Of a stretch of DNA of 36,700 nucleotides, positions 10,605-15,636 are shown in pieces (within the stretch, counting starts at the first letter, position 1; each line of letters opens with the position of its first letter). Position numbers and translations under genes: made by a program. The stretch is from an uncultured archaeon. GTDB taxonomy: Archaea > Asgardarchaeota > Lokiarchaeia > Sigyniarchaeales > SOKP01. The stretch is from positions 1 to 36,700 of the forward strand of contig CAYLZE010000009.1 in the NCBI GenBank assembly GCA_964388035.1. Reading direction: 5' to 3'. Under the pieces are notes generated by a model. That model worked only from the letters and a program-made list of their open reading frames with translations, ran no database searches and was not told where the DNA came from.

Positions 10605-10757
10605 TCAATCCCGGTCATATAATTCATTGGGTATCGACCCACAAAATGCCTCAAATCTAAAAAATTTCATACATTTTTGGCAATTGGGACAATAATAGAT
10701 TCCAGGTTCCTTATCTCTGTAAGAAAATCCGCATTGTTTACAAATCGCAATCTTCAT
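10605..10757 (-). CDS. Small zinc-ribbon protein, 50 aa (Cys-containing paralog of 15523-15636)
   Basis: MKIAICKQCGFSYRDKEPGIYYCPNCQKCMKFFRFEAFCGSIPNELYDRD*; CxxC-13-CxxC; below the ORF-track size cutoff. Confidence 0.8.
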   Translation of the reverse strand: MKIAICKQCGFSYRDKEPGIYYCPNCQKCMKFFRFEAFCGSIPNELYDRD

Positions 10758-10890: not shown

Positions 10891-10960
10891 ATTCCAACAC
10901 CCTCGCGGGGTAGTCCTCGGGCATCTCATTTTTTCATGTACGAATCATTCTGATTGGAAT
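10891..10960 (-). promoter_or_regulatory. Eukaryote-like SECIS element 1
   Basis: AUUCCAAU/GUUGGAAU lower stem; AUGA (10948-10945) and GA (10915-10914) core; upper stem UUCGuaCAU/AUGccCGAG; A-rich loop GAAAAAAUGAG; side hairpin ACCCCGCGAGGGU. Confidence 0.75.
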
Positions 10961-11477
10961 CTTGTATCATGGAATCAATAATTTCTGTAAGCAATGGTAT
11001 GGAAGGCCTTTCCGCATGAGCACTGATAGATTTCCATTTTATTTTAAAATTTTTATCAATAAGAAAGGTGGAAGGAATAGCTATCCTTGATCTCAAATCC
11101 TTTGCATTCATTTTACTCCAAGCTATAGATACTTCATAGTTCTTAGCAATCTTAGCTCCTCTATCGGCAATCATGATGAAATTAAATCCATTCTCTTCAT
11201 AGCATGTGCGCAAATGATGAGCGCTATCTACAGCGATCGTAATTAATTCTACCTTTCTTTTTTCAAATTCAGAAATATTTTTATTTAAATTTGCTAAATG
11301 GACCAATCATGGTTTTCAGAATGCACCTCTAAAAAATTCGATAAAAAGTACATTCCATTTTTGAGTTAAATCTTTCAATACGATCCTTTTTCCATAAATA
11401 TCTTCAATATCGATGGGAGGTGCTTCCGTACCTACTTCCAGACCCAAATTTTGATTCGAAATGTCCTCGTTAGTCAT
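10926..11477 (-). CDS. Peroxiredoxin-like (AhpC/TSA, Trx-fold) selenoprotein with a UxxU motif, about 183 aa
   Basis: ORFs 11316-11501 and 10926-11306 are in frame, joined by TGA-AAA-CCA-TGA (FFRGAF-U-K-P-U-LVHL) where the family has RGxWCPxC; later ADRGAKIAKNY and PSTFLID motifs; SECIS-like hairpin at the 3' end. Confidence 0.88.
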
Positions 11478-11756
11478 ATAAGAAATAATGAGTTCGTTCA
11501 AATTTAAAATAATCGAAAATGGAATTGGATTCTTACATGAAAGTACATTTATCCCTAATTAAGATAAGATTCAATTAAGACCAAATTGGAAAATCATGTG
11601 AAATGTTCAAAAGTAGAATCTAGTATAAAATGTACCTTTTATATACTCGCTTATTTTGAAAAAAGCAATCCGTTTATTTGTATATATAGTGTAGGTATAT
11701 AATTCTGCAATTTTTGATAAAAAATCCTTTAATTTGGCAAATTACTATGGATTCTT

Positions 11757-12560
11757 ATGAGAAAATTATCTAATGAAGAAATAGGAAAGTTGGGAATGTA
11801 TGAACTTCAAGGATACATTGGAGCCATGAATAGTCCAACCTTTGGAGGTTGGCGAGGTACGAACACGTTAATTGAGAAATTAAATATGGGAGAGAAGAAA
11901 AAACTAAAATTATTGGAAGTAGGATGTTCCACGGGATATATTACTAGATACATTGCGCAACAATATGATTGTGAGATCATCGGGATTGATTTATCCGAAG
12001 TACTTCTGGAAATAGCCCGAGAAGAAGCGTTGGAACTAAATTTAACGAATGTATCTTTTCAAAAAGGAAATGCTGAAAATCTTCCTTTTTCCGATGATTC
12101 TTTTGATATCGTATATGGTGAAGCTATCACCGCATTAGTGCCAGATCCTTTAAAAGTTATCAATGAATATAGAAGGGTATTAAAACCCGGTGGCAAATTG
12201 GCAACTTTAGATTTATACATGAATGAGTCTTTAAACAAAAATCTGGTTATTGAATTAAACGAGATAATGACAAATGTAATTGGTACTGAAGTTAAAATTA
12301 GGACTCTAAAAGATTGGAAGAATATTTACATGGAAACAGGATTTGATTCCATTCAAATTGAGGATCATCATGAAGATCTCTTTAAAAGAGAATATTCATT
12401 TGGGACGATGGTTAAGATCACATTTAAATTAATATATTATTTGATTTTCAATAAAAAAGTACGCAAAAAAGTTATGCCTACTTTAAAATTTGCCCGAAAA
12501 TTCCAGGATGCATTGAAAAGGGATTGTTTTGGTTATTTTATATTCATGGGAATAAAATAA
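11757..12560 (+). CDS. Class I SAM-dependent methyltransferase
   Basis: LLEVGCSTG, IGIDLS, GNAENLPFSDDSFD, RVLKPGG motifs. Confidence 0.9.
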   Translation: MRKLSNEEIGKLGMYELQGYIGAMNSPTFGGWRGTNTLIEKLNMGEKKKLKLLEVGCSTGYITRYIAQQYDCEIIGIDLSEVLLEIAREEALELNLTNVSFQKGNAENLPFSDDSFDIVYGEAITALVPDPLKVINEYRRVLKPGGKLATLDLYMNESLNKNLVIELNEIMTNVIGTEVKIRTLKDWKNIYMETGFDSIQIEDHHEDLFKREYSFGTMVKITFKLIYYLIFNKKVRKKVMPTLKFARKFQDALKRDCFGYFIFMGIK

Positions 12561-12651
12561 GTAATCATCCTAAGGAAGAATTAAAATTATTAGTAATATA
12601 AAGATATTTGAAAAAAATAGATTCGATTTTATTAAAATAAATAAGGTCTAA

Positions 12652-13809
12652 TCAATTATTTTTTATTGCTTTCAATTTTTTGCGATATTCTCGCCGAAAT
12701 TCCTTATAATCCGATTTTGCACCATTTCCACCAACAAACTCGGGGAGATAGTATTGAGCTTGAACATCCGACAAGAAAATCAAGGGCATAATTAAAAATT
12801 TGGGATTAAATTGCTTGTAAAGCTGGACAGATGCTTCTGGAGTGGATCCTGGATTATCTACTATAATACCTTTTCCCGCAGATTCGATCTTCTTATAGAG
12901 AGAAAACCATTTTTCATCAGAAGCAGGGGCTGCACCATCACCTGGAACCCATTGGATAGCTGTGATGGAAGGCTCCGCTAATAAATCATCTATGTGAACA
13001 ATTTGTCTAGCGCCATCTAAATGATAAATGGCATAATCCATGTGCTCAGCTTGAGCTCTAAGATCGGACAGCACGAATCTTTTGAAATATTTAGGAGAAA
13101 GCATTGCGGCGAAATCACATTGGAGAGTATAATATCTTTTTGGACACCATATTGGAATCCAAGAATTGCTTCCTCCATTATATTGTTCAATTATATCTTG
13201 TAATTCGTCATAAACTTTTAAATATTTTTCAAGGATGATAGAACGACACGCATCAACTATTTCGGGCTTTCTCTTTAAAGTTACAATGAGATTAGTAGGA
13301 CCCAAAAACGAAGATAAAATATCCATTATTCCTCCCAAATCAGTCATTGCAACGGAGTAGTTTTTTCCAGCCCTTTTAGCTGCATATTCAGTTATTTTGA
13401 CTAGTCGTACATACCAAGGATTATTTTGATTCAGTTCAACACTTTCCAAATGACTTTCTAATTCTTCCACTGGAGTGGGACGATTAAACCATACAGTCTG
13501 GGTTTGCTCTTCAAATCTCGGATTCACTCCCAAGACGGAAGCCATTATCCCGGGGCCATAATTCGGCCAAAACCAAGGTAACCATTCTCCTCCAAAAATT
13601 AATGCTTCTGATTTTTTCTCAAAATCATCCAAGCAACCCTCAATATCATCCCATTTTTTCGCTAGATACCACAAATCATAAAGGCCAGGGAAGGATACAT
13701 CCGGTCTGGGGTAAGCATAAAGGAGATTAGGACGATCAATAAGCTCATGATCCCACCATGCTGATAATCTCTCTTTAGCTTGTTCAATGTCCTCTTTGTA
13801 AATACTCAT
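12652..13809 (-). CDS. URO-D/methylcobamide methyltransferase-like TIM-barrel protein (paralog A)
   Basis: AWWDHELIDRP, PNYGPGIMA, TDLGG, LQCDFAAMLSP, IYHLDG, IQWVPG motifs. Confidence 0.75.
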   Translation of the reverse strand: MSIYKEDIEQAKERLSAWWDHELIDRPNLLYAYPRPDVSFPGLYDLWYLAKKWDDIEGCLDDFEKKSEALIFGGEWLPWFWPNYGPGIMASVLGVNPRFEEQTQTVWFNRPTPVEELESHLESVELNQNNPWYVRLVKITEYAAKRAGKNYSVAMTDLGGIMDILSSFLGPTNLIVTLKRKPEIVDACRSIILEKYLKVYDELQDIIEQYNGGSNSWIPIWCPKRYYTLQCDFAAMLSPKYFKRFVLSDLRAQAEHMDYAIYHLDGARQIVHIDDLLAEPSITAIQWVPGDGAAPASDEKWFSLYKKIESAGKGIIVDNPGSTPEASVQLYKQFNPKFLIMPLIFLSDVQAQYYLPEFVGGNGAKSDYKEFRREYRKKLKAIKNN

Positions 13810-14078
13810 AATTTAATGAATTTTTTATTTTATTTTATAATTTTTTAAAACTCCATTACTAAAATAAGATTCTACTTTAAGCGCTTTTTTGAAACTACTC
13901 ATGCACTTCTAAAATTAATAATAGAATCATCAAGAAAAAAGCATGATGATTAAAGCTAGTTTATTATATGGAGTTCGATATTCACATTAAATTGAAGTAA
14001 ACTTAAAAAAACTTTTAATAGTGATGATAATTTTGTGTAAAGTAATTGTTTATGATATCTGAAGGGGAAAGATAAATT

Positions 14079-15248
14079 ATTAGTGATTTTAAAGAGGACT
14101 TAAAAGAAGCAAAAGAAAGATGGAATGCCTGGTGGAATCATGAAATAATCGATCGCCCTTGTTGCGGCTATTATTGTCCCCGCATTGGGCAAAAAGTGCC
14201 AGAGGGTGAAAAAATTCTCGATTTCTTCGATCCTTGGTATTTAGCTAAAAATAATGATGATATTGAAGGTGCATTAAAGGAATTTGAAGAAACGGCTAAA
14301 ATGTATGAGTTTGGAGGAGAAAACATCCCTCAATTTTTCCCTAATTTTGGACCAGGCATCATGGCTGCTGTTTTTGGCATAGAACCTAAATATCAATCAC
14401 GCACTGTCTGGTTTCATCAAAAAACAGATATAGGTGATATTGTTTCTCATTTAGAAGGAATTAAATTAAATTCTAACAATCATTGGTATGCACGTTTAAA
14501 ACGAGTAACGGAAATTGCAGCAAAACACGCAAAAACAAATTATTCCGTTTCCATCACGGATATAGGGGGTGTTCTAGATGTCCTTTCTTCCTTTTTGGGC
14601 CCTACCCAAATCATTTTGACCATGAGAAAAAATTCCGGATTAATTGACGCGTGTCGTTCTATCATCCTTGAAAAATTATTACAAGCATATGATGAACTTC
14701 AATCCATCTTATTTCAACACGGGGATGGCATGGGCAGTTGGATGCATTTATGGTTTTCAAAACGATGGTACCCCATACAATGCGATTTCAGTGCTTTCCT
14801 TAATCCGAAATATTTTAAGCGGTTTGCCCTTCCGGACATCATCGCACAAGCTGACCACATGGACCGTGCTATTTATCATTTAGACGGTCCGAATGCACTT
14901 CCGCATTTGGATGAATTATTAAAAGTACCTTCTATTACGGGCATTCAATGGGTACCGGGCGCCGGCAAGGAGTTATATTGTAGTGACGCTTGGATGCCGG
15001 TTTATAAAAAGATTCAAGCTGCAGGAAAGAACGTGGTGATGGACTTTTTTGAGCTCCCGGAACGATTAACTCATTTCTATAACACCTTGAATCCTAAACA
15101 ACTATTTACGCTTACAATATTTTCTGATAAAGCCAGGGCATTGTTCAATCTTCCAAAATTCTTGGGAGGAAATGGAGGAGAAGGAAATTATAGACAGTTT
15201 AAAAAAGAATATAGGAAAAAAGCAAAAGGAGAAGCCTCGGCCGATTAA
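14079..15248 (+). CDS. URO-D/methylcobamide methyltransferase-like protein (paralog B); probable non-AUG (ATT) start
   Basis: Extension upstream of the called GTG (14196) reads ISDFKEDLKEAKERWNAWWNHEIIDRP, matching paralog A MSIYKEDIEQAKERLSAWWDHELIDRP; in-frame TAA at 14073; GGGGA upstream. Confidence 0.78.
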   Translation: MSDFKEDLKEAKERWNAWWNHEIIDRPCCGYYCPRIGQKVPEGEKILDFFDPWYLAKNNDDIEGALKEFEETAKMYEFGGENIPQFFPNFGPGIMAAVFGIEPKYQSRTVWFHQKTDIGDIVSHLEGIKLNSNNHWYARLKRVTEIAAKHAKTNYSVSITDIGGVLDVLSSFLGPTQIILTMRKNSGLIDACRSIILEKLLQAYDELQSILFQHGDGMGSWMHLWFSKRWYPIQCDFSAFLNPKYFKRFALPDIIAQADHMDRAIYHLDGPNALPHLDELLKVPSITGIQWVPGAGKELYCSDAWMPVYKKIQAAGKNVVMDFFELPERLTHFYNTLNPKQLFTLTIFSDKARALFNLPKFLGGNGGEGNYRQFKKEYRKKAKGEASAD

Positions 15249-15422
15249 TTCTTTCTGTTATTGTTATCTTTAAAAATCTTGATAAAAAATTCCTATATTA
15301 TGTATTTTAGACGAATATTGTAATAAGATTATCTGACACACATTATTGAACATTAATTTTGAATTAATTAATAAGTTATAAAGATTCTTTATAAGACAAG
15401 ATTCTACTTTGAATAATCCTTA

Positions 15423-15509
15423 AAGGGAATTTTCTTACCCGGGCGAGGGTTGTCGGCACTTGTCTAATTTTTTTACAAGCACTTCATTCTTAATCAATTA
15501 AATTCCCTC
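15423..15509 (-). promoter_or_regulatory. Eukaryote-like SECIS element 2
   Basis: GAGGGAAUUU/AAAUUCCCUU lower stem; AUGA (15487-15484) and GA (15454-15453) core; upper stem GUGCUUGU/ACAAGUGC; loop AAAAAAAUUAG; side hairpin ACCCUCGCCCGGGU; same 29-nt core spacing as SECIS 1. Confidence 0.8.
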
Positions 15510-15522
15510 ATTTCTGCAAAAT

Positions 15523-15636
15523 CTATCATTTTGAATAATATTCCATGAAATATGATAGCTTTTTACAATGCGGACAATAGACATACCCTTGGGATTTATC
15601 TCTGAAAATGTACCCGCATTTAGAACAGATTATCAT
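15523..15636 (-). CDS. Small zinc-ribbon protein; candidate selenoprotein with C-terminal Sec (37 aa)
   Basis: MIICSKCGYIFRDKSQGYVYCPHCKKLSYFMEYYSK-UGA-UAG; the UGA aligns with Cys39 of the 10605-10757 paralog; SECIS 2 begins about 14 nt after the UAG. Confidence 0.7.

Follow-up and report, generated by a model that had tools for sequence, protein, structure and literature searches.

Two predicted SECIS elements of a Lokiarchaeia archaeon carry a conserved side hairpin that would form a three-way junction

Selenocysteine insertion sequence (SECIS) elements of the Asgard archaea are a proposed link between archaeal and eukaryotic decoding of UGA as selenocysteine (Sec). A DNA stretch of 36,700 nucleotides (nt) from an uncultured archaeon of the Lokiarchaeia (contig CAYLZE010000009.1; this whole stretch is called the window below) raises the question of which parts make up such an element. 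The original prediction proposed that the minus strand of the window encodes two SECIS-like RNAs of one shared architecture, in which a kink-turn core is followed by an extra hairpin on the 3' side. Both RNAs, element 1 (10891..10960) and element 2 (15423..15509), are present on that strand with the letters quoted, counted from AUGA at 10948-10945 and 15487-15484, respectively. The assembly comprises 5.47 Mb at 33% G+C, and records in which near-identical elements occur bear the labels Promethearchaeota or Promethearchaeia, under which NCBI currently lists Asgard and Lokiarchaeia. Judged from sequence comparison, the two RNAs are probably working Sec-insertion signals that fold as three-way junctions of a closing stem, a kink-turn arm and a side hairpin.

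In both elements, the core consists of AUGA, a 9-bp stem, an 11-nt A-rich loop ending in AG (consensus AAAAAUNNUAG), and then GA, with 29 nt between AUGA and GA. According to the accessible text of Mariotti 2016 (PMC4989117), a lokiSECIS consists of a 9-bp stem with an 11-nt loop, preceded by AUGA and followed by GA or AA. The loop is described there as having about five leading adenines, an ultraconserved final G and usually an A before it, and the elements are located at the end of PrxL, vhuU, and hdrA-vhuD genes. Every one of these features is found in both elements of the window, that is, AUGA, the 9-bp/11-nt geometry, a loop of the form A...AG, GA, and a position near the end of a gene with UGA. 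The core architecture is therefore the lokiSECIS published in 2016 and is not new. By these features both RNAs are SECIS elements of the published eukaryote-like Lokiarchaeota type, with Sec insertion itself predicted.

Some sets of sequences that included the flanks were misaligned by MAFFT; hence, a core-only covariance model (R1, 46 nt, without the side hairpin and without the lower stem) was built first, and an ungapped subset was used for the full three-arm model (R2). At E <= 1, R1 recovered 11 sites in the 5.47-Mb genome, which are the 11 used for building it, and no other site. Element 1 was found with E = 1.1e-5 and element 2 with E = 2.4e-6. All 11 sites overlap the end of an open reading frame (ORF) with an in-frame UGA or lie at most 40 nt from it, as the original prediction had anticipated for matches to such a model. 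The genes concerned are four vhuD-like genes, two vhuU genes, PrxL, a gene for a 116-aa protein with the motif RSUSGTSC, two paralogs with UGUU or UU, and the small zinc-ribbon ORF located upstream of element 2. R1 matches all 61 genomes and all 13 genera of the family, and at E <= 5e-4 it detected nothing in 36 genomes from 17 Asgard families outside it. AUGA is invariant in 109 relatives. The upper stem co-varies at all 9 pairs. The locus is also present in public DNA runs, mostly salt-marsh metagenomes.

The remaining question is whether the hairpin behind the core belongs to the element. Elements were collected without reference to it, by R1 and later by a plain sequence pattern, neither of which includes the hairpin, and the collection is therefore a fair test of its presence. 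Of 109 distinct elements, 96% have a perfect hairpin with 4 bp or more, beginning 0-5 nt downstream of GA; a strong hairpin (score >= 10) is present in 92%, compared to 19% after shuffling. The 24 nt after GA reach a minimum free energy (MFE) of -3 kcal/mol or lower in 83% of cases, compared to 29% for shuffled sequences and 1% for a segment further downstream. The pattern was also run over approximately 185,000 species genomes and gave 68 matches in Asgard-labelled records, 48 of them new sequences, with the upper stem in 99% and the hairpin in 96%. Ten chance matches in bacteria had 1-4 upper-stem pairs, and three of these ten had a hairpin. Pooled over both collections, 177 of 190 distinct elements carry the hairpin, and its expected presence in related genomes is thus confirmed. 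A lower stem with a score >= 12 is present in 79% of elements and in 29% after shuffling, and in most elements it follows the hairpin after 0-2 nt.

Covariation provides further evidence for the helix. An ungapped alignment of 33 elements of equal geometry (A5) was analyzed by pair counting with shuffle and slide controls. The hairpin is 97% paired in A5, similar to the upper stem (96.6%), and each of its five pairs shows exchanges at both positions (for example, GC 15 and CG 12, or AU 17 and CG 15). Sliding the partners by 1-3 columns reduced pairing to 40-52%. None of 500 shuffles reached the observed values, although these statistics overstate the significance because related genomes do not count as independent samples. 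The same picture emerges from a model-fitted alignment (97 distinct rows), where no more than one row lacks pairing at each of the three central hairpin pairs. By this covariation, the side hairpin is a conserved third arm that forms a three-way junction. With R2, typical family members reach up to 86 bits, compared to at most 54 bits with the core-only model, and R2 has no off-target match in this genome. It scores some copies lower, namely element 2 (39.5 bits with R2) and the vhuU copies. The claim that the side hairpin makes a three-way junction, which the canonical eukaryotic SECIS lacks, has the support of covariation over approximately 100-190 elements.

The conservation lies in the pairing and in the loop, and not in the stem letters. 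The original prediction had described a conserved ACCC..GGGU hairpin; the pairing and the loop G-C/U are conserved, whereas the letters ACCC and GGGU vary among relatives, whose arms read AUAGGA/UCCUAU, AAUGG/CCAUU, AAGGU/ACCUU, and others. The central G of the loop is invariant in A5. GC or GU occurs in the loop of 96% of elements, compared to 53% after shuffling of the loop letters.

A hairpin at the 3' end of an mRNA might also be a terminator-like or 3'-end-forming signal that is no part of the SECIS. Such a signal could account for the contrast in composition between the hairpin stretch (47% G+C) and its A+T-rich 3' surroundings (flanks of 13% G+C), and U-rich sequence does follow some copies, for example the one on contig C6. 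A T5 run within 2 nt of the hairpin, however, is present in only 2% of the 177 elements. What comes next after the hairpin is the 3' strand of the lower stem, whose partner lies upstream of AUGA; T-runs appear beyond the complete element. We rejected the terminator role on these two grounds and regard it as highly improbable.

How the third arm is joined to the core becomes clear from the nucleotides next to GA. In the original prediction, the "cu" and "ca" after GA were read as a linker. These two to three nucleotides in fact pair with the two to three nucleotides preceding N-A-U-G-A ("ag" before the bulge) and form a short C helix. In the 33 rows of A5 this 3-bp helix is 95% paired, and in 18 of these rows both nucleotides of its middle pair are changed (AU 14, UA 12, CG 3, GC 3). 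Such variation rules out the invariant A of AUGA as the pairing partner and thereby sets the bulge at 3 nt, N-A-U. Immediately behind the C helix, the non-bulged strand continues into the side hairpin. In sequence terms the core is a canonical kink-turn with a C helix, a 3-nt bulge, tandem G.A pairs, and then a helix, in support of the original prediction of SECIS elements with a kink-turn core. The first position after the tandem G.A (3b-3n) is often non-Watson-Crick and is unpaired in 40 of 97 rows. The box C/D-type kink-turn bound by L7Ae consists of bulged N-A-U-G-A and non-bulged G-A-C strands, with a 3-nt bulge and tandem G.A. The SECIS core resembles this archaeal motif in its strand letters, its bulge, its G.A pairs, and the often non-Watson-Crick 3b-3n position. 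Unlike the box C/D motif, it is located in the 3' region of an mRNA, has no guide function, and carries the added side hairpin.

Is the third arm a peculiarity of one family? Other lineages were reached via Sec-vhuD genes with two in-frame UGAs, in families f11, f16, f19, and f22, which belong to other classes of the same phylum. Behind five of these vhuD genes, a motif finder recovered AUGA-stem-loop-GA, then a hairpin whose loop contains ..AGC.., and finally a closing stem. With R2 run without filters, a three-way junction was found at the homologous spot behind 12 of 12 two-UGA vhuD genes. Two points weaken these matches outside the family: the model includes the hairpin, and the individual E-values are weak (0.001 to 1). 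The extension beyond the family therefore rests on the common position behind the vhuD gene and not on E-values. The third arm occurs in more than one gene family and lineage, across Asgard classes, and the term lineage-specific, used for it in the original prediction, was too narrow. In this genome, selD has a type II SECIS with an AGGA...GA core, followed by UCCAUU(CGCAA)AAUGGA and a closing stem. As a side observation, selD (contig C47) encodes Sec in HGUSCK and also ends in K-UGA-UAG, with that UGA approximately 5 nt before the SECIS lower stem; the terminal UGA is probably just a stop. Two short contigs, DATKTW010000119.1 in a Nanopelagicaceae bacterium metagenome-assembled genome (MAG) and JAENXI010000076.1 in a Bathyarchaeota MAG, contain a complete lokiSECIS with the third arm and are probably mis-binned Asgard DNA.

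The closest published element is the Asgard type I 'eSECIS-like' element, or lokiSECIS (PMC4989117; PMC11227280), which in the accessible text shares the core, the gene-end position (PrxL, vhuD, vhuU), and the Lokiarchaeia hosts. The descriptions in both texts give one stem-loop with an internal loop and a lower stem. In the text of Huang, Xiao and Zhang 2024 (PMC11227280), the region is modelled as an internal loop plus lower stem, with no conserved nucleotides there. Compared to these texts, the co-varying side hairpin, its loop G-C/U, and the closure of a 3-nt bulge by a 3-bp C helix are additions. No side hairpin, third helix, or three-way junction is mentioned in the accessible text of Mariotti 2016, Huang 2024, Sun 2021, or a 2026 review; figures and supplements were outside this search, and the third arm may have been drawn in them without comment. 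A search of the accessible literature on SECIS elements with a three-way junction, or on lokiSECIS, found nothing relevant.

More distant relatives differ in several respects. Eukaryotic SECIS elements (form 1 and form 2) share the AUGA_GA core, unpaired apical adenines, a location in the 3' untranslated region (UTR), and action at a distance on UGA. In contrast to these, the elements described here have a shorter upper stem, a tight kink-turn with a 3-nt bulge instead of a large internal loop, and a third helix on the 3' strand. Neither element matched any Rfam family, including eukaryotic SECIS, at the gathering score, and at E <= 10 only chance-level matches to non-SECIS families were obtained. 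The euryarchaeal SECIS (Methanococcales, Methanopyrus) is likewise a 3'-UTR Sec signal in archaea, and its vhuD versions also have AUGA and GAC/AAC according to the accessible text of PMC4989117. Its GAA_A bulge and GC-only 3-bp upper stem are, however, absent from both elements. The closest structural relative is the k-junction of thiamine pyrophosphate (TPP) riboswitches, in which an additional helix in the non-bulged strand turns a kink-turn into a three-way junction. That helix emerges directly opposite the loop and is stacked on the C helix (Wang, Daldrop, Huang and Lilley 2014, PMC4005666). Since the third helix of the SECIS enters 2-3 bp further from the kink, it resembles the k-junction and is not a member of that class.

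All four helices of these elements pair and co-vary, the loop G-C/U is conserved, and the elements lie behind genes with UGA. The following mechanism may be proposed. A SECIS at the 3' end of the mRNA would cause an upstream in-frame UGA to be read as Sec. Its first arm is the closing lower stem. The second is the kink-turn, composed of a 2-3-bp C helix, the bulge N-A-U, tandem G.A/A.G, the 9-bp stem, and the 11-nt loop. The third is a side hairpin of 4-7 bp in the non-bulged strand after the C helix, with a near-invariant G followed by C or U in its loop. This hairpin may stack on the short C helix like the third helix in the k-junction, which would hold the kink and set the hairpin loop beside the A-rich apical loop. 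Together, the two loops could present a surface that is read by an Asgard recognition factor (EFsec/SelB or an adaptor). The G-C/U of the hairpin loop might be read by such a factor or might contact another RNA, and the general kink-turn protein L7Ae may occupy the core.

The main rival holds that the side hairpin is purely architectural, locking the junction and the kink-turn so that the RNA folds without a dedicated protein, with no factor reading the hairpin. The third helix of the TPP k-junction stacks on the C helix and stabilizes the kinked fold (PMC4005666) in just this manner, and the free variation of the hairpin stem sequence and a junction with almost no unpaired linker nucleotides are what a strut would lead one to expect. 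Nevertheless, a strut needs no near-invariant G-C/U in its loop, and these conserved letters suggest a specific contact. We therefore consider the strut a possible but rather unlikely sole role, and favor a hairpin that is read. A third arm with fixed loop letters alters the structural model on which archaeal and eukaryotic SECIS elements are compared, and it offers a concrete bait and a mutant set for seeking the recognition factor.

Apart from the relatedness of the genomes, several observations weigh against the interpretation of both RNAs as working three-way junctions. None of the listed public runs with the locus is RNA. A mutual-information (MI) scan for pairing of the hairpin loop with the apical loop or the core found none (MI <= 0.05, pyrimidine after G), and a loop-loop base pair is therefore unsupported. 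The unconstrained MFE structure of element 1 is a different fold (z = -1.1), and its upper stem has two mismatches. Element 2 has one C-helix pair only and a loose junction, more open than in most relatives, with 9-10 unpaired nt on the 5' side and 4 nt on the 3' side.

A broader scheme, which is speculative and in our view rather doubtful, can be drawn from these elements. All Asgard SECIS would be kink-turn three-way junctions in which the loop G-C/U docks EFsec or an Asgard-specific adaptor while L7Ae sits on the kink-turn, and the eukaryotic SECIS would have arisen through loss of the arm after an L7Ae domain and the specificity function had been united in SBP2. SBP2 is reported to be absent by two published Asgard surveys; no SBP2 search was made here.

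Element 1 is the SECIS of a PrxL selenoprotein gene of the AhpC/TSA family, which is located at 10926..11477 on the minus strand (Pfam AhpC-TSA, 7.1e-23). The gene belongs to the PrxL family of Mariotti 2016 (PMC4989117). Its likely start is ATG at 11477, with TTG at 11501 as an alternative. The motif F-U-K-P-U includes two Sec codons, UGA at 11318-11316 and at 11309-11307, and element 1 would serve both. Its upper stem (10944-10936 with 10924-10916) has 7 of 9 pairs and closes the 11-nt apical loop GAAAAAAUGAG at 10935-10925; GA follows at 10915-10914 and forms the G.A pairs with 10946-10945. The C helix pairs A10951 and G10950 with U10912 and C10913 across the bulge 10949-10947, which is two of the three pairs and makes this a looser version. 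The side hairpin ACCC(CGCGA)GGGU (10911-10899), whose homologous columns co-vary, immediately adjoins the 3' strand of the 8-bp lower stem (10960-10953 with 10898-10891). The three-way junction is obtained in a constrained fold, when the upper stem is imposed. The stop codon of PrxL (UGA, 10928-10926) sits within the apical loop of its own SECIS. To reach this stop, a ribosome must first have opened the element, and this would account for termination here and recoding at the two upstream UGAs. Overlap of lokiSECIS with coding sequence has been published, including a vhuU in which the AUGA core doubles as the stop codon.

Element 2, in contrast to element 1, yields the three-way junction in an unconstrained MFE fold (z = -2.4). 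Its upper stem (15483-15475 with 15463-15455) has 8 of 9 pairs and carries the 11-nt apical loop AAAAAAAUUAG (15474-15464), with GA at 15454-15453. The single C-helix pair is G15489-C15452. The side hairpin ACCC(UCGCCC)GGGU spans 15450-15437, and a lower stem of 10 bp (15509-15500 with 15432-15423) closes the junction. The gene served by element 2 is most likely a small zinc-ribbon ORF of 37 codons with the pattern CxxC...CxxC (15523..15636, minus strand), the sole upstream candidate. This ORF ends in K-UGA-UAG, with UGA at 15528-15526 and UAG at 15525-15523, and the UGA lies 38 nt before the AUGA of element 2. Element 2 would thus act on the last sense codon, and the ORF is a candidate for a tiny selenoprotein with a C-terminal Sec, to which the SECIS in this window drew attention. 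Its matches to Pfam zinc-ribbon families are weak and below the cut-off, and the accessible text of the 2026 review does not list it with the archaeal selenoprotein families.

Alternatively, element 2 could be an orphan or decaying SECIS without cargo, and the UGA of the small ORF an ordinary stop that is backed by UAG. No long ORF lies upstream, the junction is the loosest of the set, the R2 score is among the lowest of the 11, and the K-UGA-UAG end of selD described above, with its probable plain stop, offers a parallel. Two further genomes, G014 and G015, however, retain this ORF with its K-UGA-UAR end and the UGA again in last position, and in each of them a SECIS lies 34-39 nt downstream. 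The UGA also aligns with Cys39 of a paralog encoded in the same window (10605-10757, minus strand). In addition, the UGA lies approximately 14 nt before the lower stem of element 2, and a ribosome decoding it therefore need not unwind the element. An orphan element is improbable in light of these points, and the candidate selenoprotein is preferred.

Beyond the window, the SECIS elements of this genome and its relatives mark further ORFs, several of which have no Pfam match (L013 at C9:106082, L011 at C81:2544, L014 at C6:94709, and relatives). Those without a Pfam match include a 150-aa family (21 members collected) with UGUU, CUU, or UU close to the C-terminus, and the 116-aa RSUSGTSC protein. 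Also linked to a SECIS are membrane proteins carrying GGGUPCP or GGGGUAC, as well as an ORF in which the motif CKPUFSH occurs. All of these are candidates for further Asgard selenoprotein families.

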